Shown here one piece after another: positions 5,745-33,270 of a stretch of 64,000 nt of DNA. Position 1 is the stretch's first letter, and each line of letters begins with the position of its first letter. Position numbers and translations under genes: made by a program. The notes under the pieces were generated by a model that saw nothing but the letters and a program-made list of their open reading frames with translations, had not been told where the DNA came from and made no database searches. This stretch comes from an uncultured Verrucomicrobiae bacterium. Lineage in GTDB: Bacteria > Verrucomicrobiota > Verrucomicrobiia > Chthoniobacterales > JAATET01. Location: assembly GCA_963719495.1 (NCBI GenBank), contig CAVRCI010000006.1:1-64000 (forward strand). The letters run 5' to 3'.

Positions 5745-7016
5745 ATGCTCGACATCCGCCAGATCCGCGAAAATCCCGATGCCACCAAGACCCGTCTACG
5801 CTCGCGCAACGCCGACCACGACGCCGACGTCGACACCCTCCTCCAGATCGACGCCGACCGCCGCCGCGCCGAGACCGAACTCCAGCAGGTTCAAGCCGAC
5901 CGCAAACGCCTCAGCAAACAGATCGGCGCCCTCCGCGCCCAGCATCAGGACACCACCGCCATCGAAGCCGAGGTCAAAGCCTTCGGCCAGTCCCTCGAGA
6001 CCCTCGCCGTCGCCGCCGAAGAAGCCGACGCCCGCCAGACGGACCTCCTCCTCCGCCTTCCCAATCTCCCGCAGGAATCCGTCCCGGTCGGCACCACCGA
6101 AGCCGACAATCCCGAGCTCCGCACCTGGGGCGAAAAGCCCACCACCGCCACCGGCGAAGATCACCTCGCCATCGCCGCCCGCCTCGGACTCATGGACCTC
6201 GACCGCGCCGTTAAAGTCGCCGGCAGCGGTTTCACCTGTTTCACCGGAGCCGGTGCCCGACTCGAGCGCGCCCTGATTTCCTTCCTGCTCGACCTCCACA
6301 CCACCGAGCACGGCTACACCGAGATCGCCCCCCCGTTCCTCGTCCGCCGCGAATGCATGGTCGGTACCAGCCAGCTCCCGAAGTTTGAAGACGACATGTA
6401 TGGAGTCGACGGCGGTGCCGCGTTCCTCGCCCCCACGGCGGAAGTCCCCGTCACCAATCTCCACCGCGAAGAATTGTTGTCCTTGGACCAACTCCCCATC
6501 GCCTACACCGCCTACACCCCCTGCTTCCGACGCGAGGCCGGGTCCGCCGGACGCGACACGCGCGGCATCATCCGCCTGCACCAATTCGACAAAGTCGAAC
6601 TCGTCCGCATCGTCGCCCCCGAGGACTCCCCCGCCGCGCTCGAAGCCATCACCTCCCAAGCCGAGAAGGTCCTCCAGCTCCTCGGCCTGCACTACCGCGT
6701 GATCGAACTCTGCACCGGCGATCTCGGCTTCGGCTCGGCAAAAACCTACGACATCGAAGTCTGGGCTCCCGGCCAGAACGCCTACCTCGAAGTCTCGAGC
6801 TGCTCGAATTTCGAGGACTACCAGGCCCGCCGCATGAACCTCCGCTTCAAGAACGCCGAAGGCAAAAATCAATTCTGCCACACCCTCAACGGCTCCGGCA
6901 CCGCCTTGGCGCGCCTCTACGTCGCCATCCTGGAAACCTACGCTCAACCCGACGGCACCATCGCCCTCCCCGAGCCCCTGCACCGCTATTTCGGAGCGCC
7001 GACCATCCCCGCCTGA
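5745..7016 (+). CDS. serS: Seryl-tRNA synthetase
   Basis: 423 aa with an N-terminal coiled-coil arm and a class II aaRS core. Conserved stretches include FDKVELVRIV, GSGTALARLYVAILETYAQPDGTIALPEPL and YTPCFRREAGSAGRDTRGIIRLHQF. Confidence 0.9.
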   Translation: MLDIRQIRENPDATKTRLRSRNADHDADVDTLLQIDADRRRAETELQQVQADRKRLSKQIGALRAQHQDTTAIEAEVKAFGQSLETLAVAAEEADARQTDLLLRLPNLPQESVPVGTTEADNPELRTWGEKPTTATGEDHLAIAARLGLMDLDRAVKVAGSGFTCFTGAGARLERALISFLLDLHTTEHGYTEIAPPFLVRRECMVGTSQLPKFEDDMYGVDGGAAFLAPTAEVPVTNLHREELLSLDQLPIAYTAYTPCFRREAGSAGRDTRGIIRLHQFDKVELVRIVAPEDSPAALEAITSQAEKVLQLLGLHYRVIELCTGDLGFGSAKTYDIEVWAPGQNAYLEVSSCSNFEDYQARRMNLRFKNAEGKNQFCHTLNGSGTALARLYVAILETYAQPDGTIALPEPLHRYFGAPTIPA

Positions 7017-7070
7017 TCACCCTTTCCCTTCCCAACGGGCCAAATTTTTCCTTAAAAACTCTCTCCACCA

Positions 7071-7995
7071 ATGTTGCCTCCCGTTCCCTTGAGAGTCGCC
7101 GGGGCGTTCAAATGGCCACAATTGAGTCGATTCATCGACGATCTGCATTCTGTCTCGACTGCCAAATCAGGCTGCTTCGAACTCGACCTCAGCGGTCTCG
7201 GGTTTTGCGAACCTATCGGCCTCACCTGCCTCGCTGCGGGAATGCATTACCTACACCTCCGGGAGCAGGAATGCTCGATGATTCATCGCCCGTCGGACCT
7301 TGACGTTAGTCACTATCTCGAACGTTTCGGATTGTTCGAAATGCTGGGTGAGGAAGACCTCTACCCCTATCAACGACGCCCACCAGCGGGCCGTTTCCGC
7401 CGAGTTGATTCGACTGACAGGCCGCGAGGAAGTCGTCGCTGCAACGACCGCCGTCTGCGATGTATTCGAACAGAGTCTCGGCCTGGACCCCACCGCCCGG
7501 CGAGTCATCGACAATGTTCTTTCGGAAATAACCGAGAACGTCTTCCACCACGCCCATTCGCCCACCGGTGCCTACCTGTGTTGCCAGGGCTACCAGGACC
7601 GCCTTACGGCAACCATTGTCGATCTTGGAGATGGAATTGGGCGCCGACTCACCGACACCCCGGCGCTCAAACAAAAAATCGAATTTCACGGTGGACCACT
7701 CCAAGCCGCCATCGCGGCCGGGGTGACCAGCCGCCCAGCGCACAATTCCGGCTACGGGCTCGCCATCACCTCACAGATGATTTTACAGAATCACGGCACG
7801 CTCCAGATTCACTCCCAGCGCGACAGATTAATTCAACACGGCGAAAGCATCCGCGAGGAAACGGTCGAAAGTCGGTGGCCGGGTACGGTGATCAATATCG
7901 TCGTCGATCGATCTCGACCTCTTGACATGAAAGCGATTTACGAAGCGGCGTGGCCGACAGAGACCAACGACGGGATTGATTTCCTCGATGGATGA
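7071..7995 (+). CDS. GHKL/HATPase_c-type ATP-binding protein (anti-sigma-factor-like serine kinase), frameshifted near 7380
   Basis: N box (ENVFHHAH), G1 box (VDLGDGIG) and G2 box (GYGLAI) lie in ORF 7300-7995. The first ~100 aa lie in ORF 7071-7925 in another frame. Confidence 0.55.
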
Positions 7996-8043
7996 TGACA
8001 GTTTAAACGGTCGATTCTTTAGAGGAGAACCACGTTTCCATTC

Positions 8044-8331
8044 ATGACTACCATTAACCTCGCTTCCGATTTTGGTGATCTTTTGAAAACACGCTTCGAA
8101 GGAGACCTTCTGCGGGTCCAGATCGAACGATTTCTCGCCATCGAGCAGGAGATTCGAGTCGATTTCTCCGGGGTCGCCGGGATTTCCCATTCGTTTGCCG
8201 ACGAGTGTTTTGGCACCCTTTTTTCGGAACACGGGCCTGATCTGTTTCGAACGAGGTTGCACCTATCCGGGCTCAACGACGAAATCAAACTCGCGCTCCG
8301 CTGGGTGTTTTCAGACCGACAGAAGGTCTGA
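8044..8331 (+). CDS. DUF4325 / STAS-like small protein (candidate partner of the upstream HATPase protein)
   Basis: 95-aa ORF 49 bp downstream of the HATPase gene. Size and sequence pattern match the DUF4325 family that co-occurs with HATPase_c_2 proteins (recalled from memory, not searched). Confidence 0.5.
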   Translation: MTTINLASDFGDLLKTRFEGDLLRVQIERFLAIEQEIRVDFSGVAGISHSFADECFGTLFSEHGPDLFRTRLHLSGLNDEIKLALRWVFSDRQKV

Positions 8332-8341
8332 TTCCGCTGCC

Positions 8342-10809
8342 TCACCCAGCAAACAAATCCATCTGATCCGCATTCGCGATCGCCGCCATGTCGCGGCGTT
8401 TCCTCCCGCCCGCCGCGATCACCGGCTTCCCCTCGGCGTTCAATTCACTCTTTTCGAGGTTCGCCAGGATCTGCTTGGCCCGGCCGATGATCGATGGCGG
8501 CAGGCCCGCCAGCCGCCCGACCTGGATCCCGTAACTCTGGTCCGCTCGACCCGGCACGATCTTCCGCAAGAAGATCACCTCGTCGTTCCACTCCCGCACC
8601 GACACGCTCAGATTTTTCACCCCGTCCCGCGTCCGGTCCAGATCGGTCAGTTCGTGGTAATGCGTGGCGAACAACGTCCGGCACCCGATCTCGTCGTGCA
8701 AATGCTCGGCCACGCTCCACGCAATCGACAGCCCGTCGAACGTCGACGTCCCCCGCCCGATCTCGTCCAGGATCACGAGGCTGTCGCGCGTCGCGTTATT
8801 GATGATGTTCGCCGTCTCGTTCATCTCGACCATGAACGTCGACTGCCCGCGCGACAGATCGTCATTCGCTCCCACTCGGGTAAAAATCCGATCCGTCACC
8901 CCGATCCGCGCCGTCGCCGCCGGAACGAAACTCCCCACCTGCGCCATCAGCACCAGCAGCGCGACCTGCCGAATGTAAGTGCTTTTCCCCGCCATATTGG
9001 GGCCCGTCAAAATCGCGAACCGCCCGTCGGCCAGAGCCAGCGACGTGTCGTTCGGCACGAACCGCTCCTCGCCCGTCCGTTGATCCAGCACCGGATGCCG
9101 ACCCTCCGTGATCTCGAGCGATCCATCGTCCACGATTTCCGGTCGGCAATAGCCAAACGTCCGCGCCGTCTCCGCCAGCGACGCCAACGAATCGACCGCA
9201 CCCAGCGCCGCCGCCGTCTCCTGGATCTCCCCCAGCGCCTCGTTCACCCGCCGCCGCAACCGCTGGAAAATTTCGATTTCCACCGCCTTGCTCCGCTCTT
9301 CCGCACCGAGAATCTTCCCCTCGATCTCCTTGAGTTCCGGCGTGATGAAGCGCTCGGAATTCGTGGTCGTCTGCTTGCGGTGATAGTCCTCCGGGACGTT
9401 CGCGAGATTCGACTTCGTGATCTCGATGAAGTAGCCGAAGACGGAATTAAATCGCACCTTCAGCGATTTGATCCCGTTCGCTCGATCTCCCGCTCCTGCA
9501 ATCGCGCGATCCACTCCTTCCCCTCACGCCCCGCCGCCCGCAGCTCATCCAGCGTCTCGTCGTAGCCTTCGCGGACCATCCCGCCATCGCGGATCAACGC
9601 CGGAGGCTCGTCGACAATGCCCGCCCGCAGCTCGCCTGCCAAATCCGGCAGCTCGTGAAGCTCGCCGACCAGCGCCGACTCCACGCCCAGCCCCCCGGCA
9701 CTATCCCGGACCCGGGGCACCTGCTCGAGCGAAGCCGCCACGGCGGCCAGGTCCCGCGCGTTTCCTGCCGAGCCACTCAGCCGCGCCGCCGACCGCTCGA
9801 GGTCCCGAATTCCCGCCAGCGCGTCGCGCAACTCCGCCAGCGCGATGGGATTTTCCAGGCAACGCCCGACCACGTCCTGCCGCGCGCGGATCGCATCGAC
9901 CTCGCGCAGCGGATGGAGAATCCACTCCCGCAGCGTCCGCGCGCCCATCGGCGTCACGGTGGCGTCCAGCGAGCCGAGCAACGTCATCGCCCGCCCCCCG
10001 CGCGAACCCACCAACTCGAGGTGCGTCTGCGTCACCGCATCGAGAATCAGGAATTCGCTGACCCGATACGGTCGCAGCCCGCGCAGATGCGCCACGTTCC
10101 GCCGCATTTGCCGCGTCAGATAATGCAGCACCGCGCCAGCCGCGCTCACGGCGGCGCGCATCCCCGAGCAGCCGAAGCCATCGAGCGACTGGACCTTGAA
10201 GTGCTCCAGCAAAAGCGCCTCCGCAGGCTCCGTCTCGAAGACGTAGCCCTCGATGGCAAGCGCCTTCCCAGCCGCTTCCAAGAGTGACGCCTGTTCCTCG
10301 GGCACGAGCAATTCCGCCGGCGCCATCCGCGCCAATTCGTCGAGCAACTGCGCCTCCGTCGCGACCTCGGTGAGCCGAAATTCCCCCGTACTCAGGTCGG
10401 CGAAGGCGAGCCCGAAGCACCCCTTCCGCTCGCAGACAGCGGCGAGGTAATTCTGCTTCCGCTCGTCGAGGCCGAAGTCATCCAACGTCCCCGCGCTAAG
10501 AATTTGCGCCAGCTCGCGCCGCACCAGTTTCCCCGCCTGGACCTCGCCGACCTGATCGCAGATCGCGACCCGCTTCCCGGCGGCGATCAGCTTCTCGATG
10601 TAGCCCTTGGCGGCGTGAAACGGCACCCCGCACATCGGCGTGGTCCCGCGCTTGGTCAGCGCAACGTTCAGCAGGGCGGACGCTTCCTTCGCGTCGTCGC
10701 CAAACATTTCGTAGAAATCCCCGAGACGAAAAAACAGCAGCGTGTCCGGCGGCAGCTCGCGCCGCACGGCCAGATACTGCCGCATCATCGGAGTCACTTT
10801 GTCAGACAT
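8342..10809 (-). CDS. mutS: DNA mismatch repair protein MutS, frameshifted near 9460-9514
   Basis: N-terminal mismatch-binding domain ([32 protein letters not shown]) lies in ORF 9460-10809. C-terminal ABC ATPase ([49 protein letters not shown]) lies in ORF 8342-9514. The ORFs overlap in different frames at C homopolymers. Confidence 0.85.
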
Positions 10810-10925
10810 CGGATGAGGATTGGAACAGAAGGAAACGAAGGAAACAAAGAATACCGAAATTCTGGAAAATTCCGCGCAGCGGAAGCGCCAGAATGCTCTT
10901 CTTCACCCCTTCGTTATCTTCGTTC
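10806..10925. repeat. GAACGAAG-rich inverted-repeat intergenic element, copy A
   Basis: Left arm gaacagaaggaaacgaaggaaacaaagaata and right arm cttcgttatcttcgttctcttctgttc are reverse-complementary. It lies between the miaB stop and the mutS start. A related copy lies at 19752-19855. Confidence 0.5.
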
Positions 10926-10933
10926 TCTTCTGT

Positions 10934-12298
10934 TCAAGATTCAGTGACGACCGCGTCTCCGAACAGCGTGGTGTTCGACCGGCCCACGACGTTCACGTCC
11001 ATCACCTGCCCGACGTGCCGCTCCGCCCCTTCGAACACGACGATCTTGTTCGTCCTCGTCCGTCCCATCAGGCGCTCTGCATTGTGCCGACTCTCGCCCT
11101 CGCAGAGAATTTCCATCCGCGACCCCACGCACGCCTCGAGCTTCCGCTCGACGTTCGCGTTGATCAACGCCAGCAAATCCTGGTTTCGACGCTCCTTCAC
11201 GTCCTCCTCGACCTGACCCGCCATCTCCGCCGCCGGCGTATCCTTGCGCTTCGAATACCGAAAAATAAACGCGTTATCGAAGTCCGCCTCCCGCGCCAGA
11301 TCACACGTCGCTGCGAAGTCCTCCTCCGTCTCGCCCGGGAATCCCACGATCACGTCCGTCGTCACCGCGATCCCCGGTCGCACCGCCCGCAATTGCCCGA
11401 CGAGCTCCAGAAACCGCTCCCGCGTGTAGGCCCGGTGCATGGCCTTCAGCAACCGGTTCGAACCCGACTGCACCGGCAAATGCACGTGCTCCATCAGCCG
11501 CGGCAGCCGCCCGAACGCCTCCACCAGATCGGTCCGAAACCCGATCGGATGCGGCGAAGTGAACCGCACCCGCTCCAGCCCCTCCACGCCGTGCACGGCC
11601 TCCAGCAACTGCACGAACGGACTCAACCCGCCGACCTTCGGGAACTCGTGCCTCCCGTAGAGATTCACGATCTGCCCCAGCAGCGTCACCTCGCGCACCC
11701 CGCCCGCGACCAGCCCGCGCACCTCCTCGACGATCTCCCCAATGGGCCGGGACCGCTCCGCCCCGCGCGTCGATGGCACGATGCAAAAGGTGCAGTGCAT
11801 GTTGCACCCCTGCATGATCGACACAAACGCCGTCGCCTGCCGCTCCTTCAGCGTGTGCTCGCGGATCGTGTTCTGCGATTCTTCCTCCTCCTCGACGTCG
11901 ACAATGGGCAGCCGCTCGTTGTCGATCCGCGCCTCGAAATTTCGGCGCAACAACTCGTCGACGTGATCCGCCACGCGGTGAAACTTTTGCGTTCCCACCA
12001 CCAGATCGACGTGCGGCGAGGTCTGGGTCAATTCCTCCCCGCGACTCTGCGCCATGCAGCCAAGGTAACCCAGGACCAGGTGCGGCCGGTCGCGCCGGAG
12101 TTTGCGCAGCATCCCCATCTTGCCGATGGCCTTCTGCTCCGCCATGTCGCGGACGCTGCAGGTATTTAAGAGGATCACGTCCGCGTCCGACTCGTCACCC
12201 GACAGCCGGTAACCCCGACTCTCGAAGGTGCGCGCCACCTGCTCGGAATCGCGCTCGTTCATCTGGCACCCGTAGGTTTTAATGTAGACACTCGGCAT
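10934..12298 (-). CDS. miaB: tRNA-i6A37 methylthiotransferase MiaB
   Basis: 454 aa with N-terminal MTTase motif (YIKTYGCQMNERDSE), radical-SAM cysteine triad (CNMHCTFCIVP) and a C-terminal TRAM region. Confidence 0.9.
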   Translation of the reverse strand: MPSVYIKTYGCQMNERDSEQVARTFESRGYRLSGDESDADVILLNTCSVRDMAEQKAIGKMGMLRKLRRDRPHLVLGYLGCMAQSRGEELTQTSPHVDLVVGTQKFHRVADHVDELLRRNFEARIDNERLPIVDVEEEEESQNTIREHTLKERQATAFVSIMQGCNMHCTFCIVPSTRGAERSRPIGEIVEEVRGLVAGGVREVTLLGQIVNLYGRHEFPKVGGLSPFVQLLEAVHGVEGLERVRFTSPHPIGFRTDLVEAFGRLPRLMEHVHLPVQSGSNRLLKAMHRAYTRERFLELVGQLRAVRPGIAVTTDVIVGFPGETEEDFAATCDLAREADFDNAFIFRYSKRKDTPAAEMAGQVEEDVKERRNQDLLALINANVERKLEACVGSRMEILCEGESRHNAERLMGRTRTNKIVVFEGAERHVGQVMDVNVVGRSNTTLFGDAVVTES

Positions 12299-12389: not shown

Positions 12390-14254
12390 ATGCCACGCAC
12401 CCGAGATAACCTGAAAGCAACTCCGCAGCGAGCCGCCGGACCATCCTTCCGGAGAAGCTGCGTGCTTGGGCTCGGGGTCGGCGCGGCAACTTTCGCCCTT
12501 TGGAGCGCCAGTTTTTTGCTCGACGATCAGCCGGTTGGCCACCCGGCTTGGATCCTCGCTGCGGTCGGCTCCACGCTGATCGCGCTCGCTTATGGTCACC
12601 TCCGTCTCCGTCTTGCCTGCGCGCGCCGCCAGGACCCCGCCGGACTCGAGCTCTTCCACCGCCTCACGCGCGACCTGCCGGTGATGCTCTATCAGTTTCG
12701 CCAATATCCCACCGGACGGACATCGGTCACCCAGGCCAGCGACGCCATCCGCACCATCTACGAACTCACCCCCGAGGAGGCCCGGAAAAACGGAGTCGCC
12801 ATCATCGATCTCGTCCACCCCGAAGACCGCGACCGCATCTGGAAAAGCCTCGTGAAGACCTACCGCGACCTCACGCCCTGGCACCAGGAATACCGCGTCG
12901 TCCTCCCGCAAGCCGGCACCGTCTGGCGCGCCGCCCACGCCCGCGTCCAGCGCATGCCCGACGGGGGAACCCTCTGGCACGGATTCATCATCGACATCGA
13001 CGATCAGAAAAGAGGCGCCGCCGAGCTCGAGGCCCAGCGATGTCGCGCCGAGACCGCCGACCGGGCCAAGAGCGAATTTCTGGCCATGATGAGCCACGAT
13101 ATCCGCACGCCCATGAGCGCCGTTCTCGGCTTCGCCGATCTCCTGAACGATACCTCACTGACCGAAAACCAACGGGAATTCCTCAGTTCGATCCGCACCT
13201 CCGGCGAGACCCTCCTCCTCCTCATCAACGAAATCCTCGACCTCTCCCGGGTCGAATCCGGCACGCTCGAACTCAACGAATCGTCCTTCTTCCCTCCGCG
13301 AGTGGCTCGGCGACCTCTCCAGCATCCTGACCTTCCGCGCGGACGTCGAAAGGAATCGTCTTTCACACCGAGATCGTCGCCGGGACCCCCGGAAGCATTC
13401 ACGCCGACCGCGCCCGTCTCACCCAGGTCCTCCAAAACCTCGGCGAGAACGCCATCAAGTTCACCGACGAAGGGCGCGTCCACCTCCGCGTCTCTGCGGC
13501 AGACGGCCCCACCGAGGACTCCCTCGTCTGGACATTCACCCTCCAGGACACCGGCATCGGCATTCCCCCCGAGAAGGTCGCCGTGCTCTTCGAGCCGTTC
13601 CGCCAGGCTCGGGACAGCGATGCCAGTCGTCAGAATGGGGTCGGCCTCGGCCTCACGATCGCCCGGCGCATCAGCCAGAAAATGGGCGGCGACATCGCCG
13701 TCAGCAGCCGACTCGGCACCGGAACCTGCATGACCGTGACCATCCAGTCACGCCGTCAGGTCAGTCCGGCCCTCCCCGCGACAGCGGAATCCGTTGACCC
13801 GGACAGCCCGATCGACTCCGATCCCGTTGATTTCAAAGGCCTGAGAGTTCTTTTGGTGGAAGACCATCCCCTCAACCAGCGGCTGGCCGTTCTGACTCTC
13901 GATCATCTCGGCTGCCGCTGCGACACCGTCGGCGACGGCAGCGAGGCGATTCAGGCCTGCCGCGAGAACGCCTACGATCTCGTGCTCATGGATTTCGAAC
14001 TTCCAACCGTCAACGGCCCGGACGCCACTCGCGAAATCCGCGCTCTCCAATCCCAAGGCCGGATTGCCGGCGACGATCGCCACCTACCCATCGTCGCCCT
14101 CACCGCCAATGCCCTGCCCGAGCAGAGGCAGGAATGCCTCGACGCCGGCATGGACGACGTCCTCACCAAGCCCATCCGCCGGCCCAAGTTGATCAGATTA
14201 CTGGAATCCATCCGCGATCGTGCCCCCGCACCCCATCGCTCCAACCTCGCATGA
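12390..14254 (+). CDS. Hybrid sensor histidine kinase (PAS, HisKA, HATPase, C-terminal receiver), two frameshifts near 13290-13580
   Basis: The H box SHDIRTPMSAVLGFADLL is present. HATPase motifs (LGENAIKFTDEGRVHL, DTGIGIPPEKVAVLFEPF, GVGLGLTIA) are spread over three frames. The receiver shows VLLVEDHPLNQ...DLVLMDFELP...KP. Confidence 0.75.
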
Positions 14255-16965
14255 CGCCCATCGATCAACTCTGGGTCCTGGCCAGCGCCACACTGGTCAT
14301 GTCCATGCAGGTCGGCTTCTGCATGCTCGAAGCCGGGCTCGTGCGGTCGAAGAATTCGATCAACGTCGCGATCAAGAACCTGATCGATTTTTGCGTCGCC
14401 GCCCTCCTTTTTTGGGCCTGCGGCTACGGGATCATGTTCGGCCTCTCACCGACCGGTTGGTTCGGCATCAGCGATTTCTTCGCGGACGCGGCGATGGGGC
14501 CCGACAAGATTCTGCAGTTCATTTTTCAAATGATGTTCTGCGCCACCGCGGCGACCATCGTGTCCGGAGCCGTCGCCGAGCGGATGAGCTTCTCGTCCTA
14601 CATCCTCGTGACCCTCGTCGTCTCCGGCATCCTCTACCCCATCGCCGGCGGCTGGGTCTGGAACGACGCCGGCTGGCTCGCCGCGCTGGGTTTCCGCGAT
14701 TTCGCCGGCTCGACCGTCGTGCACAGCCTCGGTGGCTGGGCCGCGCTGGCCGCCGTCATCATCCTCGGCCCGAGGACTGGTCGCTTCGACTCCCGAAGAC
14801 CACTCGTCAGCTCGCACAGCCTGGTGTTTTCGACCATCGGCGTGATCATCCTCTTCGTCGGCTGGCTGGGTTTCAACGGCGGCAGTTCCATGGAACTCGA
14901 CGGCGCCGTTCCCCGGATCGTCCTCAATACCACCCTCGCCGGCTCCGCGGGTTGCCTCGTCGCGCTCGCCGCCGTCTGGTGGAAAAAACGCCTACCCGAA
15001 CTCCCCGCCACCCTCAACGGCTGCGTCGGCGGCCTCGTCGCCATCACGGCAAATTGCTACGCCGTCACCGCTCCCGAAGCCGTGCTGATCGGAGCGATTG
15101 GCGGCCTGCTCAGCTACGCCGCCGTCTTCGCGCTCGAGTCTCTCAAAATTGACGACGTCGTCGGCGCGTCCGCCGCCCACGCCATCCCGGGCGTCTGGGG
15201 CACGCTGGCGCTCGGCCTTTTCGGCGACCTCCTCATTCTCGATACCGGTCTCTCCCGCTCGTCCCAACTGGGAGTGCAGGCACTCGGCTCGGTGGTCTTT
15301 TTCGTCTGGGCTTTCGGAGTTGGCTTCGTCCTGCTGGCCGTCGTCAACCGCCTCAAACCCCTGCGCATCGGGCTCGAATACGAACGCGTCGGCCTGAACG
15401 TCTCCGAGCACGGAGCCAGCACCGAGATCATCGATCTTCTCACCGAAATGGCGCGCCACAGCGACGACGGCGAGTTCAACCAACGCCTCGCGTTCGAACC
15501 GTTCACCGAGGTCGGCCAGATCGCGTCCGGATACAACCGCGTGATCGACAAGGTCGTTTCGGAAATGGAATTCCGCGAAGGCATCGCGCGCCGACTCCAG
15601 CGCGCCCGCGATGACAGTGAATCCGCCAACCAGAAGATCTTCAGCAGCCTCCAATACGCCCGGCGCATTCAGCAGGCGATGCTCCCCAGTCCGCGCGAAC
15701 TCAGCGACGTCCTCGGTGACCACTTCGTCCTCTACCAACCCCGCGACCTCGTCGCCGGCGACTTTTACTGGTGCCAGCGAGTCGGCGGTAAAAGCTTCTG
15801 CGCGGTCGTCGACTGCACCGGCCACGGCGTCCCGGGCGCCTTCATGTCCATGATCGGGGCTCTCATCCTCGAACACATCATCGTCGAGAAGCAAATTCAC
15901 GAACCCGCCGCGATTCTCTCCGAGATGCACCGCCGGGTCCGCCGGGCCCTCGCGCAGGACAGCCCGGAAGGCGCGGCCAACCGCGACGGGATGGAGGTCG
16001 CGCTCATCCGCATCGATCCCGACCAGATCGTCTTCGCCGGTGCCAACCGTCCCCTCTGGTGGGTTCGGGAGGACGGCTCCGAAAACACGTTCGGCGAGAT
16101 CACCGGAGACCGCCAGGGTCTGGGTGGCGGCCCGCTGGAACCCGCCGAGATCGCCTTTCAGCAGCACGTCCTCCCGGTCACTCCCGGCCTCGCGGTCTAC
16201 CTGCAGACCGACGGCATCGTCCAGCAACCCAACCACCTCCGGGCCATCTTCGACCACCAGCGACTGCGCGACGTTCTCCTCTCGATCCAGAACGAAACCT
16301 CCGCTGGCCAATCCCGAAAAATCAGCGATTCTTTCCGGGAGTTTCGGGGCGGCGCCACCCAGCGCGACGACGTCACCGTCCTCGGCCTTCTGTTTTCATC
16401 CCAACCTAACCCAGTGCCTGATCCCGCCCTCCAATCCGACGTTGCCCTACCCGGATTACACCCGGTGCCTGAAGGAACGCTTTTTCACTCCGAAGGCCCC
16501 GTAACGGCCGCGCTGATCGAGGATTGCGGCCGCAGTCTCCGGGAGCGCACCCAGCTCGGCATCGCTGGTCGCATCGCCCTTTTCGGTGTCTTCGTCGAAC
16601 TTGCCCAGAACGTCGCCCGGCACTCCGCCGATCGCGAGGACGGCCTCGGCTGCGGCCAGCTTTCCGTTCAACTCACCGCCGCCGGGTTCACTCTCCGATC
16701 TTCCAATCGCGTCCGCCCAGCCGACCAGGCCCGTCTGCGCGGTCGGATCGACGAGCTACTTGCCCTCGACAGCGACGCGCTCAATCAGCTCTACCTCGAA
16801 CGCCTGCACCGCCCCAAGAATTCGTCCAAGCCGGCTGGACTCGGATTGATCGACCTCGCGCGCAAATCCTCCCTGCCACTCACCGCCGACTTCCTGCCGG
16901 TGCCAGGCGAAGACACCGTCTTTTCCCTCAGCGTCCACCTGAACAGTCAGATGCAACTCGCCTGA
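14251..16965 (+). CDS. Ammonium transporter (Amt) fused to PP2C/SpoIIE phosphatase and GHKL partner-switching kinase (SiaA/SiaB-like) domains
   Basis: An N-terminal ~430-aa Amt/MEP domain (MQVGFCMLEAGLVRSKNSINV..., multiple TM segments) is followed by a SpoIIE-type PP2C (GDFYWCQRVGGKSFCAVVDCTGHGVPGAF, LQTDGIV). The C-terminal ~190 aa carry GHKL-like N/G boxes (ELAQNVARHS, GLGLIDLARKS). Its ATG overlaps the upstream kinase stop (ATGA). Confidence 0.7.
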   Translation: MTPIDQLWVLASATLVMSMQVGFCMLEAGLVRSKNSINVAIKNLIDFCVAALLFWACGYGIMFGLSPTGWFGISDFFADAAMGPDKILQFIFQMMFCATAATIVSGAVAERMSFSSYILVTLVVSGILYPIAGGWVWNDAGWLAALGFRDFAGSTVVHSLGGWAALAAVIILGPRTGRFDSRRPLVSSHSLVFSTIGVIILFVGWLGFNGGSSMELDGAVPRIVLNTTLAGSAGCLVALAAVWWKKRLPELPATLNGCVGGLVAITANCYAVTAPEAVLIGAIGGLLSYAAVFALESLKIDDVVGASAAHAIPGVWGTLALGLFGDLLILDTGLSRSSQLGVQALGSVVFFVWAFGVGFVLLAVVNRLKPLRIGLEYERVGLNVSEHGASTEIIDLLTEMARHSDDGEFNQRLAFEPFTEVGQIASGYNRVIDKVVSEMEFREGIARRLQRARDDSESANQKIFSSLQYARRIQQAMLPSPRELSDVLGDHFVLYQPRDLVAGDFYWCQRVGGKSFCAVVDCTGHGVPGAFMSMIGALILEHIIVEKQIHEPAAILSEMHRRVRRALAQDSPEGAANRDGMEVALIRIDPDQIVFAGANRPLWWVREDGSENTFGEITGDRQGLGGGPLEPAEIAFQQHVLPVTPGLAVYLQTDGIVQQPNHLRAIFDHQRLRDVLLSIQNETSAGQSRKISDSFREFRGGATQRDDVTVLGLLFSSQPNPVPDPALQSDVALPGLHPVPEGTLFHSEGPVTAALIEDCGRSLRERTQLGIAGRIALFGVFVELAQNVARHSADREDGLGCGQLSVQLTAAGFTLRSSNRVRPADQARLRGRIDELLALDSDALNQLYLERLHRPKNSSKPAGLGLIDLARKSSLPLTADFLPVPGEDTVFSLSVHLNSQMQLA

Positions 16966-16976
16966 GCACCTCGCCG

Positions 16977-17354
16977 ATGGACTTCCCGATCCCCGAGACC
17001 GAGACCACGCCGCGCGTCACCTGGGACGCCGCCACCGCGACACTTCGTCTCGCGGGAGAGTCCTACCCCGAAAACGTCCTCGAGCTATTCGCCCCCCTCG
17101 CCGAATGGCTCGACACCCAGCTCGGCCCCACCTCGACGCTCCACCTCCAACTCGAGCTTTTTTATCTGAACACCTCTTCAATGAAAGCGCTCGTCGACAT
17201 CATCCGCCTCCTCGAGGTCAAGCACGCGCAAGGCACCACCGTCGAAGTCGAGTGGCGCTACCTTCGAGACGTCGATCTCATGCGACAGACCGGCGAGGAC
17301 CTTCTCGCCGGCAGCCACCTCCCGCGCCGCTTCACCCCGGTCGCCGCCATCTAA
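16977..17354 (+). CDS. DUF1987-family protein (SiaC-like partner-switch substrate)
   Basis: 126-aa ORF directly downstream of the Amt-PP2C-kinase fusion. Sequence pattern (TLRLAGESYPENVLELFAPLAEWLD...LQLELFYLNTSSMKAL) resembles DUF1987/SiaC proteins. This is a from-memory family call. Confidence 0.55.
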   Translation: MDFPIPETETTPRVTWDAATATLRLAGESYPENVLELFAPLAEWLDTQLGPTSTLHLQLELFYLNTSSMKALVDIIRLLEVKHAQGTTVEVEWRYLRDVDLMRQTGEDLLAGSHLPRRFTPVAAI

Positions 17355-22729: not shown

Positions 22730-22860
22730 GGGTCGACCATTCAATCCACCCGCCGACATCACGCAAGCGAGGAAATCCACATTCTCGGAAAGTGCTGAGA
22801 AAAAACCTCGGTTTTTGTAAATGCACAAACCGTCCTCCTCCCTCTAGTCTCCGCCTCGCC

Positions 22861-23511
22861 ATGAACGATCTGATCCACGCCGCACTCTTCCCGGTGAATC
22901 TCCCGTTCACCATCGTCCTCCTTGGACTCGCCGCCTATTGGATCCTCGTTAGCTTCGGCATCTTCGATCTGGACAGCAGCAGCGCCGACGGGGACATCGC
23001 GCTCGTCGACTCCGACGCCGATACCGACATTCACGACGTTCCCTTCAGCGGCTTCCTCCATTTTCTCAACGTCGGCGAAGTCCCGCTCCTCGTCATCGTC
23101 ACCGTCCTCACTCTCTCCATGTGGGTCTGCGGCCTGTTGGCAAATTTTTTCCTCAACCCAGCCGACAGCCTCCTCCTCGGTCTCGTCTACCTGATCCCCA
23201 GCTTCGCCGTCAGCGTGGTGGTCACCCGCTACACCACGATGCCGCTCCGCAGTGTCTTCCGGCTCCTCAACGCCCCCGAGCCCACCGACCGCACCCTGAT
23301 CGGACAGACCTGCATCGTCCGCACCCGCGAAGCCAACGCGACCTACGGCCAGGCCGAAGTCGCCTCCGACGGCGCCCCCCTCACCATTCAGGTCCGCACC
23401 CGCCCCGACGAAACCCTCCCGTCCGGCACCACTGCCCTGATCGTCAGCCAGGACGCCGACACCTCCGCCTACCTCATTCGCCCCGTCACCGCTTCCAATT
23501 TCGACCAATAA
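22861..23511 (+). CDS. NfeD/YqiJ-like membrane protein with C-terminal OB-fold
   Basis: N-terminal TM helices, then a beta-rich C-terminus (GQTCIVRTREANATYGQAEVASDGAPLTIQVRT). It sits directly upstream of the flotillin gene, the classic NfeD-SPFH pairing. Confidence 0.65.
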   Translation: MNDLIHAALFPVNLPFTIVLLGLAAYWILVSFGIFDLDSSSADGDIALVDSDADTDIHDVPFSGFLHFLNVGEVPLLVIVTVLTLSMWVCGLLANFFLNPADSLLLGLVYLIPSFAVSVVVTRYTTMPLRSVFRLLNAPEPTDRTLIGQTCIVRTREANATYGQAEVASDGAPLTIQVRTRPDETLPSGTTALIVSQDADTSAYLIRPVTASNFDQ

Positions 23512-23541
23512 CCAACCACCAAAACCCAACCAACACCACCC

Positions 23542-25545
23542 ATGGATTTCATCACCCCGCTCGCCATCCTCATCGGACTCTTCGTCCTCCTCATCATCTT
23601 CGGCTTCATGGTCATGATCATCCGGTGCTACCGGAAGGTTGACCAAGGCACCGCCCTCGTCCGCAATGGCATGGGCGGCACGAAAGTCTCCTTCTCCGGC
23701 ATTGTCGTCCTCCCGGTCATTCACAAAGCCGAGTTCATGGACATCTCGGTCAAGCGCGTCGAAATCGACCGCCACGGCCAGTTCGGATTGATCTGCAAAG
23801 ACAACATGCGCGCCGACATCAAGGTCGCCTTCTTCGTTCGCGTGAATCAGACCTCCCAGGACGTCCTCAAGGTCGCCCAATCCATCGGCTGCGTCCGCGC
23901 CTCCAGTCAGGAAGCCATGGTCGAACTCTTCGACGCGAAATTCTCCGAAGCCCTCAAAACCGTCGGCCGCCAATTCGATTTCGTCGAACTCTACAACTCC
24001 CGCGAACTCCTCAAGGACGACATCATCAAACTCATCGGCACCGACCTCAACGGCTTCGTCCTGGAAGACGTCGCCATCGATTACCTCGAGCAGACCCCGC
24101 TCAACCTCCTCAACGCCGACAACATCCTCGACTCCGAGGGCATCAAAAAAATCACCGAGCTCACCGCCGCGCAGAAAGTCCTCGCCAATAACATCGACCG
24201 CGAGCGTGAGAAAACCATCAAGCAACAGGACGTCGAAGCCCGCGAAGCCATTCTCGAACTCGAGCGTCAGCAAAAAGAAGCCGAGGAAAAACAGGCCCGC
24301 GAGATCGCCATCGTCACCGCCCGCGAGCAGGCCGAGTCCAAGAAAGTCCAGGCCGAGCAACTCCTCCGCTCCGAGCAGGCCCGCATCGCCGCCGAGGAAG
24401 AGATCGCCATCGCCGAGGAAAACAAGGCCCGCCAGGTCATCGTCGCCGCCCGCAACAAAGAGCGCACCGACGCCGTCGAGACCGAGCGCGTCGAGCGCGA
24501 CCGCATGGTCGAGCGCACCGAGCGCGAGCGCATCGTCGAACTCGCCGTCATCGAGAAAAACAAAGCCGTCGAGGCCGAACAAAAAGTCATCCAGGACGTC
24601 ATTCGCGAACGCCTCGTCGTCGAAAAAGCCGCCGTCGAAGAGCAGGAACGAATCAACGACACCCAGGCCTTCGCCGCCGCCGAGCGTCAGAAAAAGGTCC
24701 AGATCACCGAAGCCGAGATGCAGGCCGAGCAGTCACTGGTGAAAGACATCAAAGCCGCCGAAGCCTCCAAGAAAGCCGCCGAACTCCGCGCCCAGGAGGA
24801 CCTCTTCGCCAAGGTCACCAACGCCGAAGCCGAAAAGGAGTCCGCCGAGCTCCACGCCGAGGAAATCCTCATCGCCGCCGAAGCGCAACAAGCCGCCGCG
24901 ACCAAGCAAGCCCAGGCCCGCCGCACGCTCGCCGAAGCCACCAGCGCCGAAGAGGCCGCCCTCGGGCTGGCCGAGGCTCAGGTCATGGAGGCCAAAGCCG
25001 CCGCCGCCGAGAAGCAATACGCCGCCGAGGCCAAGGGTATCGCCGATAAGGCCGAGAGCATGAAAATGCTCGACGGCGTCGGCAAGGAGCACGAGGAGTT
25101 CAAGCTCCGCCTCGAGAAGGACAAGGAAGTCGAACTCGCGCACATCCACGTCCGCAAGGACATCGCCGAGCAGCAGGCCAACGTCCTCGGCGAGGCGCTC
25201 AAATACGCGAAGATCGACATCGTCGGCGGCGAGGCGCAGTTCTTCGATCGCATCACCAATGCGATCACCAACGGCAAGGCCATCGACCGCCTCGTCGACA
25301 ACAGCCGCACTCTCACCGACGTGAAGGACACCTTCTTCACCGGCGACGCCGACGATTTCCGCGAGCATCTGGACGACCTGATCAAAAAATTTGGGATCAA
25401 AACCGAAGACCTCAAAAACCTCACCATCGCCGCCGCCCTCGGCAAGCTCATCGCCCAAACCGACGACCTGGAGAAGCGCACCTTCCTCGGCAACCTCCTC
25501 CACCAGGCCAAAACCCTCGGCGTAGAGGGCGACCGCATGAACTAA
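23542..25545 (+). CDS. Flotillin-like SPFH/Band-7 protein (YqiK/FloT family)
   Basis: 667 aa with N-terminal TM and SPFH domain (YRKVDQGTALVRNGMGGTKVSFSGIVVLPVIHKAEFMDISVKRVEI), then a long EA-rich coiled coil and a conserved flotillin C-terminus. Confidence 0.85.
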   Translation: MDFITPLAILIGLFVLLIIFGFMVMIIRCYRKVDQGTALVRNGMGGTKVSFSGIVVLPVIHKAEFMDISVKRVEIDRHGQFGLICKDNMRADIKVAFFVRVNQTSQDVLKVAQSIGCVRASSQEAMVELFDAKFSEALKTVGRQFDFVELYNSRELLKDDIIKLIGTDLNGFVLEDVAIDYLEQTPLNLLNADNILDSEGIKKITELTAAQKVLANNIDREREKTIKQQDVEAREAILELERQQKEAEEKQAREIAIVTAREQAESKKVQAEQLLRSEQARIAAEEEIAIAEENKARQVIVAARNKERTDAVETERVERDRMVERTERERIVELAVIEKNKAVEAEQKVIQDVIRERLVVEKAAVEEQERINDTQAFAAAERQKKVQITEAEMQAEQSLVKDIKAAEASKKAAELRAQEDLFAKVTNAEAEKESAELHAEEILIAAEAQQAAATKQAQARRTLAEATSAEEAALGLAEAQVMEAKAAAAEKQYAAEAKGIADKAESMKMLDGVGKEHEEFKLRLEKDKEVELAHIHVRKDIAEQQANVLGEALKYAKIDIVGGEAQFFDRITNAITNGKAIDRLVDNSRTLTDVKDTFFTGDADDFREHLDDLIKKFGIKTEDLKNLTIAAALGKLIAQTDDLEKRTFLGNLLHQAKTLGVEGDRMN

Positions 25546-25572
25546 GGAGTGGCGACATCTTGTCGCCAACAA
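25546..25572. repeat. 27-bp palindrome-containing direct repeat, left copy (GGAGTGGCGACATCTTGTCGCCAACAA)
   Basis: 7-bp stem GGCGACA / TGTCGCC with 3-nt loop, immediately after the flotillin stop. A near-identical copy lies at 26319-26345 after vapC. Confidence 0.6.
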
Positions 25573-25590
25573 GGAGCTTTACGCGCGTTT

Positions 25591-25618
25591 TTGACATCAA
25601 ACCTCCATCGCTATAAAT
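25591..25618 (+). promoter_or_regulatory. Sigma70-like promoter for the vapBC cassette
   Basis: TTGACA at ~25591-25596, 15-16 nt spacer, then TATAAAT at ~25612-25618, about 10 nt upstream of the vapB ATG. Confidence 0.4.
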
Positions 25619-25626
25619 TCTCCATC

Positions 25627-25869
25627 ATGACGAAAACCCAAATTCAACTCCCCGAAGACCTCTACAACCGGGTGAAAGACTTCGCCCGCGAGCGCGAATG
25701 GTCCCTCGCCGAAACCTTCCGCCGTGGTGTCGAAGAACTCCTTCGACACTACCCCGCCAAGCCGCACGGCGGCACGCGATTGGCATCCGCCAAAAGGACA
25801 AAATCTTGGATGCAAGCCGATGTCCGAAGCCGAGCTGAAGCGCCACGCGCAGGAGGATTTCGACTGACC
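25627..25869 (+). CDS. vapB: VapB-like ribbon-helix-helix antitoxin, C-terminus uncertain
   Basis: MTKTQIQLPEDLYNRVKDFAREREWSLAETFRRGVEELL is a typical RHH/CopG antitoxin N-terminus. An alternative frame ends ...MSEAELKRHAQEDFD* five nt before vapC, so a frameshift in the 3' part is possible. Confidence 0.5.
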
Positions 25870-25873
25870 GCTC

Positions 25874-26314
25874 ATGCTCGCCATCGACACAAACATTCTT
25901 TTTCACAGTTACAACGACGACTCTCACATTCACCAGACAGCCTACGAATGGGTGGACGGCATCGGCGGACGGGAGGACATCGTCATCTCCGAATTTGTTC
26001 TCGTCGAACTCTATCGACTCATCCGCAATCCGACGGTCATGGACAAACCGCTCTCACCGTCAGCCGCAGTCGCCGTGATCGCTTCCTACCGCTCCCACCC
26101 TCGCTGGCGCATCGCGGGATTTCCCACCCAATCCCGCGAACTCCACGACGAGCTCTACACCCGCATGGCGAAACCCACCATCGCCTACCGCCGCATCTAC
26201 GACACCCGTCTCGCGCTCAGCCTCCTAGCCGCTGGCGTCACCGAAATCGCCACGACCAACGTGAAAGACTTCAAGGACTTCGGATTCACCAAAGTCTGGA
26301 ACCCGCTCAAATAG
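25874..26314 (+). CDS. vapC: PIN-domain toxin VapC
   Basis: 146 aa. MLAIDTNILF has the first PIN acidic residue and EFVLVELYRL the second. TTNVKDFKDF has the C-terminal acidic residue. Confidence 0.8.
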   Translation: MLAIDTNILFHSYNDDSHIHQTAYEWVDGIGGREDIVISEFVLVELYRLIRNPTVMDKPLSPSAAVAVIASYRSHPRWRIAGFPTQSRELHDELYTRMAKPTIAYRRIYDTRLALSLLAAGVTEIATTNVKDFKDFGFTKVWNPLK

Positions 26315-26318
26315 CCCC

Positions 26319-26345
26319 GGAGTGGCGACATCCTGTCGCCAACAA
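26319..26345. repeat. 27-bp palindrome-containing direct repeat, right copy (GGAGTGGCGACATCCTGTCGCCAACAA)
   Basis: Matches 25546-25572 at 26 of 27 nt. It lies between the vapC stop and the start of the giant ATPase gene. Confidence 0.6.
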
Positions 26346-26377
26346 CCAAAGGCACAGCCTGAAATCACCTCACGAAA

Positions 26378-31979: not shown

Positions 31980-32360
31980 TCAAGATCCGACTGCTTGAGC
32001 GACGGAACTTTCAAGCAGTGGGATAGTCACTGCTGGATACCCGGCTCTGGAGCTCAAACCGTAAATGTGCTCTCTCAGAAACGGATACAAAATATAAGGA
32101 GCAACTTTATCTGCCCAAAGATCTAATTTTTCAACAGGGAACAGCGTGGTATTCACCTTAAACTGACCTACTAGCTCGACTAAAAGGTAGAAGGGTAGAT
32201 TAGCAAAATCTTCTTCTACGCCAATCTCTCCCCGAAGGAATACATGTATCGTGTTCGAACTAGGATCCAAATCCGAATGCCTGTCACCCATTCGAAAGTC
32301 GTCTTCGTTGATATTCAGGTCACTCTTTCCCCGCTTGGTAGCAACAAAGCGGACGGTCAC
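31980..32360 (-). CDS. Hypothetical protein (cassette gene 3)
   Basis: 126-aa ORF in the low-GC segment, where an ORF of this length is unlikely by chance. No recognisable motif. Confidence 0.35.
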   Translation of the reverse strand: MTVRFVATKRGKSDLNINEDDFRMGDRHSDLDPSSNTIHVFLRGEIGVEEDFANLPFYLLVELVGQFKVNTTLFPVEKLDLWADKVAPYILYPFLREHIYGLSSRAGYPAVTIPLLESSVAQAVGS

Positions 32361-32430
32361 GCGGTGATACCCAATTTAATGAGATTGGGTGGATGGAAAC
32401 TGTAGAATCGGACACGCTCAATTCTAAAAA

Positions 32431-32691
32431 TCAGGCCGCAAGAGCCAAATCCTCGTGGTCGAACGGAAGGCAATTTAGGCGAAACGTCGATGGAGAAGCC
32501 TCATTGAAGAAAACCTCTTCGAGGTTGCCCTGAATATCCACGGGAATGACGACCGTGCTCGACCCGCGGAGGTCAAAATCAGGAGCGCAGGCACACTCCT
32601 CGCGTGCAGATTCAAGCAGCGCTACCATTGCCTCATCCGTTGCCGAACCGAGAAAGTTATCGACGATCTCTGAAATGTTGATGGTTTCCAT
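32431..32691 (-). CDS. Hypothetical small acidic protein (cassette gene 2, immunity/antitoxin-like)
   Basis: 86 aa, rich in Asp/Glu. Starts 7 nt downstream of the cassette gene 1 stop on the same strand. Confidence 0.35.
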   Translation of the reverse strand: METINISEIVDNFLGSATDEAMVALLESAREECACAPDFDLRGSSTVVIPVDIQGNLEEVFFNEASPSTFRLNCLPFDHEDLALAA

Positions 32692-32697
32692 AGCTTG

Positions 32698-33201
32698 TTA
32701 CATGCCATTATAGCTCATGATAACGTTTTGAACACAATCAAGATTACGAACGCATATGATTATGCGGGTGTGTCGGACAAATTGAGACTCAGGAGACAAA
32801 TTTCTTGGATGGTTCGGGTATTGCACCGCACGCACGCTGTCAAGCCGCCCAAGATTTGCTACCATAGTAACGGCTTGCTTGTCGGTCACAACGATCTTAA
32901 ATTTTTCGGAATACGCTTTGATCAGTTTCTGGACTTCGTCTGCGTGCTCAGAAATTGTTAGGTCCAAGCAGAATCCCAGTTGCACGGTCGCTCGTAGAAC
33001 AGCGATCTTATTCTGCTTGTAGCGTTTTCGAGCCCACCACTTCACCATTGCTTCCGACCCCTCCCAGAAGTAAACGCCAGAAGCGCGAAGCCCATCGGTC
33101 TTCTTGAAGGTATCTTTTATGATTCGCTCTCCAAGGTCCCGTGAGGTGCCATGAAAAGCGTCAGGAATCTCCTTGGATGACCGACTGATGAAGGTGGGCA
33201 T
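32698..33201 (-). CDS. Hypothetical protein (cassette gene 1, candidate toxin/effector)
   Basis: 167-aa ORF in low-GC DNA. A TTGACA-containing putative promoter lies in the ~60 bp between its start and the repeat boundary. Weak, unverified resemblance to RES-domain toxins in the segment GLRASGVYFWEGSEAMVKW. Confidence 0.45.
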   Translation of the reverse strand: MPTFISRSSKEIPDAFHGTSRDLGERIIKDTFKKTDGLRASGVYFWEGSEAMVKWWARKRYKQNKIAVLRATVQLGFCLDLTISEHADEVQKLIKAYSEKFKIVVTDKQAVTMVANLGRLDSVRAVQYPNHPRNLSPESQFVRHTRIIICVRNLDCVQNVIMSYNGM

Positions 33202-33270
33202 TGGGGCAAACGGAAGGATGGTGATCTAGGGACACGGAGGTTGTCAACTTGACATTGCTCAGAGGAACGA

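Follow-up and report, generated by a model that had tools for sequence, protein, structure and literature searches.

The locus and the reality of the gene fusion

A 64,000-nucleotide (nt) stretch of DNA from an uncultured Verrucomicrobiae bacterium (assembly GCA_963719495.1, contig CAVRCI010000006.1; the whole 64-kb stretch is referred to as the window) encodes a polypeptide in which an ammonium transporter (Amt) fold of predicted sensor type is joined to a SiaA-type PP2C phosphatase and a SiaB-type GHKL protein kinase, with the gene for a SiaC homologue downstream and that for a hybrid histidine kinase upstream. A preliminary description of this DNA had proposed an ammonium-responsive, SiaABC-like partner switch whose enzymes reside in one polypeptide on an Amt sensor, and the family, structure and motif analyses reported here support this proposal. 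Numbers preceded by L denote the loci that we compared and those preceded by P homologous proteins. The unit comprises the following features (aa, amino acids; pLDDT, predicted local distance difference test), all on the plus strand:

12390-14254, +: hybrid histidine kinase gene, PAS_3-HisKA-HATPase_c-REC (Pfam domains split over two frames)
14251-16965, +: fusion gene, 904 aa: Amt receptor (predicted), HAMP-like linker, SiaA-type PP2C, flexible linker, SiaB-type kinase
14251-15420, +: Amt domain, aa 1-390 (best PDB matches Sd-Amt1 and Ks-Amt5)
15421-15690, +: HAMP-like helix-loop-helix, about aa 389-440, running on as a long helix to aa 477
15691-16395, +: SiaA-type PP2C phosphatase, aa 481-715 (6k4e SiaA-PP2C, E 2.5e-37)
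16396-16473, +: Pro-rich linker, aa 716-741, predicted disordered (pLDDT 34-40 in the full-length model, <50 in the domain model)
16474-16962, +: SiaB-type GHKL protein kinase domain, aa 742-904
16977-17354, +: SiaC homologue (DUF1987), 125 aa (Pfam SiaC, E 9e-29)

The mechanically called open reading frame (ORF) of the fusion spans 14134-16965 (943 aa), of which the first 39 codons coincide, in a different frame, with the last part of the preceding gene. Because the Amt match begins at residue 7 when numbered from the ATG at 14251 and homologues are 894-917 aa long, we place the gene at 14251-16965 (904 aa). The single ORF joining Amt, PP2C and GHKL domains that had been described is therefore retained, with a length of 904 instead of 943 aa, as is the downstream DUF1987 gene (PF09345, E 9e-29), which starts 11 nt past the fusion stop codon and encodes 125 rather than 126 aa. 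The ATGA overlap between the hybrid kinase and fusion genes (ATG 14251-14253, TGA 14252-14254) is likewise present, but it is not conserved: in relatives the two genes are separated by 6-116 nt (6 in L170, 84 in L001, 64-115 in L003). Thus, operon linkage of the hybrid kinase and the fusion is kept in relatives, while the overlap, and any translational coupling through it, is specific to the window genome. The unit is flanked upstream by mutS and a miaB-like gene and downstream by guaA, all on the minus strand, and promoter and terminator scans returned nothing usable.

The hybrid kinase gene is interrupted in the window by two frame changes inside ~100 nt near 13290-13350 (in a tblastn comparison, the unbroken 618-aa L001 protein aligns in three successive frames), and mutS is present as two overlapping ORFs with one frameshift at 9460-9514. 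In L001, L003 and L170, three loci from the same long-read metagenome sample, the gene immediately preceding the fusion encodes an unbroken orthologue of the hybrid kinase, and the kinase is membrane-anchored in relatives; mutS is also unbroken in L001 and split again in L170. As kinase and mutS are unbroken in L001, and the kinase in L170, the frameshifts in the window are probably assembly indels, and since the orthologues of the frameshifted genes are unbroken in relatives the window probably stems from an error-prone long-read assembly, so that its other ORF calls should be read accordingly.

Two explanations turn on assembly quality. If the kinase frameshifts were real, the operon would be a decaying, pseudogenised remnant, and the clustering of two frameshifts within ~100 nt of the kinase gene could be taken that way; we consider this very improbable, given that mutS is split as well, in the window and again in a long-read metagenome relative, that the kinase is unbroken in L170, L001 and L003, that the indels lie at short homopolymer runs, as is typical of assembly errors, and that the fusion and SiaC ORFs are unbroken with all catalytic motifs present. 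Conversely, the fusion itself could be an artefact that merged separate siaA and siaB genes, as SiaB is a separate gene in many relatives (L006, L010, L095-L099), indel errors do occur in this assembly and an artefact of the frameshift kind is seen in P0008 (L003), though in the opposite direction, this seemingly two-domain protein being a frameshifted triple fusion. The idea is scarcely credible in view of the recurrence of the fusion: the same three-domain arrangement occurs in P0002-P0006, P0009 and the JGI contigs L090-L092, all from independent assemblies, and clustering at 90% identity distributes it over at least seven clusters, drawn from independent short-read and long-read assemblies, in which the 25-aa linker is conserved. 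As it is found in independent assemblies, we take the three-domain fusion to be real. A protein identical to that of the window (P0001) is in the public protein collection.

Fusions of Amt to a SiaA-like phosphatase are more widespread than the triple fusion. Amt-SpoIIE proteins of ~715 aa with such a phosphatase are common in Verrucomicrobiota (Opitutaceae, Rariglobus, Puniceicoccus), and remoter ones occur in Pseudoalteromonas, Spirulina and Beggiatoa. The additional fusion to SiaB is seen in only a few clusters, of which one bears the name Chthoniobacterales; elsewhere SiaB is encoded by its own gene directly downstream. Other Amt-HAMP fusions bear histidine kinases, GGDEF domains or a GAF-PAS-PP2C-HATPase_c_2 module. 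Two of the remoter proteins, from Pseudoalteromonas (L007, BBZB01000001.1) and Spirulina subsalsa (L008), are 38-39% identical and have no adjacent SiaB or SiaC; the L007 gene is flanked by transposase fragments, and that of L008 is followed by genes for a periplasmic binding protein and a dCache-HAMP-SpoIIE protein. A scan of the genome collection with a HAMP-PP2C alignment was swamped by the generic DCTGHGVP motif and returned mostly Bacteroidota SiaA-like phosphatases along with one close relative; its results served as a background set.

Domains of the fusion protein and the SiaC homologue

The N-terminal domain (Pfam Ammonium_transp, aa 7-390, E 8e-112) had been described as a complete Amt permease, and it does have the Amt fold, but its sequence carries features beyond those of a plain permease. 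The closest solved structures are Sd-Amt1 (8qj3/8qpf, E 6e-114) and Ks-Amt5 (6eu6, E 6e-86), with AmtB and Mep2 far behind; Sd-Amt1 and Ks-Amt5 are the only two characterised Amt-type ammonium receptors, their transducers being a diguanylate cyclase and a histidine kinase, respectively. The signature of the N1/N2 ammonium-sensing site proposed by the authors of the Sd-Amt1 work (QX6EX15NX2D[F/T]X54-60TX2[S/T]; PMC11152129) is matched exactly, as a regular expression, by aa 20-105 of the fusion (Q20, E27, N43, D46, F47, T102 and S105). Moreover, N256 is the counterpart of Asn-269, which in Sd-Amt1 narrows (blocks) the cytoplasmic exit, and the pore residues W137, S212, F96 and F208 and the twin histidines H158/H310 are intact and aligned with those of Sd-Amt1. 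The signature, N256 and the pore residues are all invariant or at least 90% conserved among 41 homologues. The fusion also possesses a C-terminal transducer after transmembrane helix 11 (TM11), another feature of Amt receptors, here composed of the HAMP-like linker, PP2C and SiaB. With a full N1/N2 signature, an exit-blocking Asn and a HAMP-like linker as in Sd-Amt1, the Amt part appears to be of the sensor type, which favours a receptor over a transporter.

The alignment with Sd-Amt1 extends past TM11 through the region that its authors name the HAMP domain; we call this region HAMP-like because the Pfam HAMP match at aa ~394-434 is below threshold (E 0.012, 16 bits). In an AlphaFold2 (AF2) model of the full-length fusion (pLDDT 85.7; Amt, PP2C at 481-715 and SiaB at 743-900 confident), helices at 375-387 and 389-406 precede a loop and a long helix at 420-477, with pLDDT values of 46-67 over 389-406 and 420-477. 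The phosphatase domain (Pfam SpoIIE, aa 514-712, E 5e-17) has intact PP2C metal-binding motifs (GD504, D521CTGHG, D579G, TD654G, RD706D707) that are invariant or nearly so in the alignments. Only positions 341-655 of the 658-position NCBIfam SiaA model, a span that starts in the HAMP region of the model, are matched by aa 397-713 (E 1e-55, 189 bits versus an equivalog cutoff of 700). The fusion is thus not a full-length SiaA, composed of its own membrane sensor, HAMP and PP2C, the N-terminus being an Amt domain instead.

The C-terminal domain matches Pfam DUF6272 (aa 776-891, E 1e-24), the NCBIfam SiaB_fam_kinase model (101.9 bits, cutoff 85) and, among PDB sequences, SiaB (6kko_A, E 1e-14). 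Neither the N-box (E783-x3-N787) nor the G-box (G863-L-G-L866) varies between the fused forms. When the C-terminal 188 aa were modelled with AF2 (pLDDT 83, core >90), Foldseek retrieved SiaB first (E 2e-9, TM-score 0.75), followed by SpoIIAB, UsfX, RsbW, CA domains of histidine kinases, CheA P4 and pyruvate dehydrogenase kinases; the model thus places in the GHKL fold the C-terminal ~190 aa for which that fold had been predicted. Searching proteins with the SiaB domain by itself gave no matches, for which reason the model of this domain was built from only seven sequences.

The downstream protein had been taken for a DUF1987 protein, and it proved to be one: its PDB match is SiaC (6kko_C, E 7e-20), and the predicted phospho-acceptor T66, in the motif YLNTSS conserved in 13 orthologues, aligns with T68 of Pseudomonas aeruginosa SiaC; the alpha2/alpha3 surface is kept as well. 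The score against the NCBIfam SiaC model (NF038265; 97.6 bits versus an equivalog cutoff of 150) assigns it to the family, though not as an equivalog. All four of the modules that had been described were recovered with strong statistics where expected, by Pfam as Ammonium_transp, SpoIIE, DUF6272 and SiaC.

Histidine kinases beside SiaC and a candidate docking stalk

In P. aeruginosa, Thr68 of SiaC receives a phosphate from SiaB and is dephosphorylated by SiaA; binding to the diguanylate cyclase SiaD, whose active stalk dimer is thereby stabilised, is restricted to the unphosphorylated form of SiaC. That no SiaD-type cyclase is encoded nearby had been noted before, and Pfam indeed detected no GGDEF domain among 40 window ORFs scanned; none was found in the other Amt-SiaABC loci either, where the single ORF with a GGDEF motif (L093) is a shadow frame. 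Instead, a histidine kinase gene is adjacent in all 17 distinct loci that encode Amt-SiaA, SiaB and SiaC with sufficient flanking sequence, compared with any kinase in only 2 of 21 non-Amt loci with SiaC. The output of the circuit, which had been given as unknown, thus acquires a candidate in a histidine-kinase neighbour, in relatives usually a small one with a stalk, while the sole adjacent candidate in the window is a PAS hybrid kinase that lacks this stalk.

In 13 of the 17 loci (L005, L006, L010, L090, L091/92, L093, L094, L095, L096, L097, L099, L172 and L173), the gene directly past SiaC, starting 0-24 nt after it, encodes a small soluble histidine kinase (sHK; 315-370 aa) with an N-terminal helical stalk, HisKA and HATPase_c. 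Two of these loci (L096, L173) have the order SiaB-SiaC-sHK-AmtSiaA, the four genes remaining together despite the rearrangement, and in L172 the sHK is followed by a single-domain receiver (response regulator). The sHKs are orthologous end to end (31-72% identity), whereas they share only the catalytic core (~27%) with the hybrid kinases. The remaining four loci form the clade of the window (window, L170, L001 and L003): here the PAS_3 hybrid kinase lies directly upstream, no sHK is present in the locus and the downstream genes vary. Both kinds of kinase occur together in L005 and L094, the hybrid kinase of L005 being 33% identical to that of the window clade over ~550 aa. No sHK relative was found on large contigs of the window's clade among the database matches, a search that was not exhaustive for each genome.

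All sHKs carry the motif K-L-T-R-I-S-D-x-x-Q-x-Q-L about 40 residues ahead of the phospho-histidine, and they constitute a small family, with about a dozen full-length members among the 150 best matches of an exhaustive profile search of 1.84 billion representative proteins. The paper on the SiaC-SiaD crystal structure describes how SiaC binds a repeated motif of the SiaD stalk, SiaC Thr68 contacting S82 and Q86 of SiaD, with further contacts at K77, V78, R80, I81 and D83. When all PDB sequences were searched with the sHK stalk profile, SiaD came first (7e6g_A, residues 35-99; E 0.11; pairwise hhalign P 6.9e-4), and the alignment falls on this very SiaC-binding motif (K77-V78-x-R80-I81-S82-D83-x-x-Q86). 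On its own, the likeness of the two stalks is suggestive. In a BLOSUM scan with the two SiaD motifs alone, which covered 1.1 million sequence windows, the stalks of the sHKs came out at about rank 30 and not first, and since it did not single out the sHKs the argument for a common stalk rests on a third enzyme.

This enzyme is a class III adenylate/guanylate cyclase encoded in an alphaproteobacterial metagenome-assembled genome (MAG; L071, CAWBYO010000005.1, 9756-10799) directly after SiaA, SiaB and SiaC genes whose SiaA has no Amt domain. Over its first 95 residues it resembles the profile of the sHK stalk (hhalign probability 94%, P 9.3e-8), and it is the only match to the profile other than sHKs among 6,222 ORFs (hmmsearch E 4.7e-8). 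It looks like a SiaC-controlled cyclic AMP/cyclic GMP cyclase. As negative controls, the hybrid kinase of the window clade (P 0.2) and an unrelated small kinase (P 0.09) showed no such similarity to the sHK stalk by hhalign, and the string 'ISDAFQ' in the hybrid kinase of L094, which falls inside a PAS domain, was taken as a chance match. By these profile comparisons, a homologous stalk is joined to three dimer-dependent catalytic domains, the gene for each adjoining that for SiaC, and the sHK is therefore the likely target of SiaC in most of the family. In the 64-kb window, neither an sHK nor a docking stalk was found by tblastn, regular expression or hmmsearch with the stalk profile.

Other genes also accompany SiaC. 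TerB-ABC transporter fusions follow it in four loci and a CYTH protein is another neighbour, a variety in keeping with the proposal in the literature that DUF1987 proteins exert a modulating effect on their neighbours. The TerB-ABC fusions are Bacteroidota proteins of ~1020 aa (TerB plus ABC ATPase and ABC-2 permease; L037 4896-7955, L044 9825-12893, L069 9919-12993, L081 1946-5044); they do not match the stalk profile and could possibly be SiaC-regulated transporters. Three Bacteroidota MAGs (L056, L060, L039) encode three to five tandem paralogous SiaA-like sensor phosphatases (~445-1400 aa each) with a single SiaC, which suggests many inputs onto one switch protein; SiaB beside these arrays is doubled (~370-381 aa), as in L014, where it has two Pfam DUF6272 repeats.

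A parallel arrangement is built from other parts. Four loci (L104, L103, L118 and L142) encode Amt-HAMP-GAF-PAS-SpoIIE-HATPase_c_2 in one protein of ~1160 aa (in L104 the locus covers 6885-12111), and on the other strand a small (314-aa) histidine kinase with a 130-aa single-domain receiver. A STAS protein follows the Amt-GAF-PAS fusion in L104, and in L009 an Amt-SpoIIE-HATPase_c_2 protein adjoins a STAS protein. The design is that of the window, with Amt, PP2C and kinase fused and the gene for the phospho-substrate adjacent, but the parts are of the RsbU/RsbW/RsbV type with additional GAF and PAS domains, and the small kinase has no SiaC-type stalk. From their sequences, two unrelated sets of partner-switch parts have been fused to Amt receptors, the second being an independently assembled ammonium-receptor switch, and the general reading of Amt as the receptor of a partner switch is thereby supported.

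Proposed mechanism, alternatives and significance

We propose that ammonium sets the phosphorylation of SiaC and that SiaC in turn gates a histidine kinase, a reading to which we assign a probability of roughly 60%. In Sd-Amt1, NH4+ at the N1/N2 site turns the receptor on and pairs of HAMP domains dimerise the transducer. By homology, external NH4+ would likewise enter the Amt pore and, after the twin-His site, be diverted to the N1/N2 site rather than transported, as in Sd-Amt1 and Ks-Amt5. The ensuing conformational change would be relayed to the PP2C domain by the HAMP-like linker and then the long helix, and by analogy with Sd-Amt1 ammonium most likely switches the phosphatase on. The PP2C domain would take off, and the tethered SiaB kinase put on, the phosphate at SiaC Thr66, so that with ammonium SiaC-Thr66 phosphorylation should fall and the unphosphorylated fraction of SiaC report ammonium. 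Fusion of the two enzymes would set the phosphatase to kinase ratio at 1:1 and locate the cycle at the membrane, the flexible 25-aa linker letting the tethered kinase reach the same substrate. For the last step we draw on gene neighbourhoods and stalk homology: unphosphorylated SiaC would bind the coiled-coil stalk of a dimer-dependent output enzyme, which is SiaD in Pseudomonas and may be the sHK, with its homologous stalk, in most relatives. In the window, the co-transcribed PAS hybrid kinase is the only adjacent candidate partner.

Several observations weigh against this proposal. The direction of the ammonium effect is taken from Sd-Amt1 by analogy; the N1/N2 signature marks a sensing site and not a loss of transport, plant AMT1 transporters bearing it as well while they transport (PMC11152129); the similarity of the sHK and SiaD stalks is by itself weak (E 0.11), as is the rank of the sHKs in the motif scan; and the window's own clade lacks the sHK in its loci and any detected stalk in the 64 kb of the window, while its hybrid kinase bears no stalk similarity and is frameshifted in the window assembly. 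For the window genome, a stalk-bearing protein elsewhere in the genome and the hybrid kinase are about equally likely as SiaC target: the SiaC surface conserved with the sHK-linked SiaCs favours the former, and the conserved trio of hybrid kinase, fusion and SiaC the latter. We advance only tentatively, at somewhat less than even odds, the fuller picture in which a Ser/Thr partner switch gates a two-component kinase, SiaC clamping a portable docking stalk found on a GGDEF cyclase, a class III cyclase and a histidine kinase, and the clade of the window being more derived still, with SiaC acting on the PAS hybrid kinase or on a partner encoded elsewhere.

The same sensing and SiaC switching could operate with the window's hybrid kinase as an independent or upstream input (for example for a PAS signal), SiaC acting on a stalk-bearing enzyme encoded elsewhere, which could be an sHK, a SiaD-like diguanylate cyclase or a class III cyclase. 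The window SiaC keeps the Thr loop and the alpha3 surface as in sHK-adjacent SiaCs, the hybrid kinase shows no similarity to the docking stalk, SiaC neighbours vary by lineage (kinase, class III cyclase, TerB-ABC transporter, CYTH) and the co-occurrence of both kinases in L005 and L094 indicates that they are not equivalent. Still, we think this possibility less likely than not, as the hybrid kinase, fusion and SiaC are kept as a unit in four genomes whose downstream genes differ, and no sHK relative turned up among database matches on the large contigs of the clade, within the limits of that search. Quite improbable, in our view, is that the Amt domain is a working ammonium transporter whose uptake is regulated by the phosphatase, kinase and SiaC, for instance with SiaC or phospho-SiaC gating the pore in the manner of GlnK or of C-terminal phosphorylation. 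The canonical Amt pore residues are all intact, the N1/N2 cluster includes the transporting plant AMT1 and no downstream target is assigned within the window, all of which a transporter would accommodate; but the closest solved relatives are two non-transporting receptors, the Asn that narrows the exit is invariant, a HAMP-like transducer linker is present, and regulated uptake would leave the constant kinase neighbour and the SiaC-docking-type stalk without a role.

Compared with SiaABCD of P. aeruginosa (6k4e, 6kko, 6k4f, 7e6g), the PP2C, GHKL kinase and DUF1987 components are homologous, the phospho-threonine is kept and the expected logic is the same, unphosphorylated SiaC activating a dimeric enzyme through a coiled-coil stalk. 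Here, however, an Amt receptor replaces the membrane sensor of SiaA, SiaA and SiaB form one polypeptide, and the conserved neighbour is a histidine kinase, with no SiaD among the 40 window ORFs scanned. Judged by these features, the locus falls within the SiaA, SiaB and SiaC families and, for its Amt part, within the N1/N2 class, but, as SiaD is missing and the SiaA sensor replaced, it is not a strict SiaABCD system. With Sd-Amt1 (Amt-HAMP-GGDEF) and Ks-Amt5 (Amt-histidine kinase), the fusion has in common the N1/N2 signature and the exit-blocking Asn, and with Sd-Amt1 also a C-terminal transducer attached through a HAMP-like linker; it differs in that the transducer is a Ser/Thr phosphatase and a kinase acting on a separate small protein, so that the signal would leave as the phospho-state of a diffusible partner and not as cyclic di-GMP or phospho-histidine. 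HsbR is a REC-PP2C-kinase fusion that acts on the STAS protein HsbA. Like the fusion described here, the HsbR-HsbA system of P. aeruginosa unites a phosphatase and an antagonistic kinase in one polypeptide with an N-terminal input and a small switch protein as substrate that binds other enzymes, but its input is a receiver, its kinase of the RsbW type (HATPase_c_2) and its substrate a STAS protein, as opposed to Amt, DUF6272/SiaB and DUF1987, with no REC in the fusion. PMC8457831 refers to the HsbR-HsbA system. In the open-access literature we found no description of an Amt-PP2C fusion or receptor, or of SiaC acting on a kinase.

Elsewhere in the window, a run of plus-strand genes (22792-31348) encodes a membrane protein resembling YqiJ (22792-23511), a protein of 667 aa for which Pfam has no match (23542-25545) and one of 1656 aa (26378-31348), in which AAA domains occur together with DUF7902 and DUF3686 ('ATPase involved in DNA repair'). 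The G+C content drops to 0.54 at 32000-35300, from 0.60-0.66 elsewhere, a segment that adjoins a gene for a Na+-dependent bicarbonate transporter (SbtA-like, 34281-35243). Further along lie genes for a member of the chlorite dismutase family (41630-42451), for a protein of 782 aa in which MlaD is repeated six times (43593-45941) and for another, unrelated two-component system (51484-54175; GAF-HAMP kinase at 51484-52914 on the minus strand, receiver-domain ORFs just beyond).

The locus would add a third transducer principle to Amt receptors, a phosphatase/kinase pair with the phospho-state of a small diffusible protein as the signal, and it suggests that bacteria signal ammonium in a manner not described before. 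The SiaABC module would thereby extend past biofilm control in Pseudomonas, and since its putative partners share a recognisable stalk on different enzymes, SiaC targets could become predictable from sequence. The proteins are small and modular, which makes each step accessible in vitro, and the recurrent pairing of SiaC with a histidine kinase suggests that partner switches and two-component signalling are connected.

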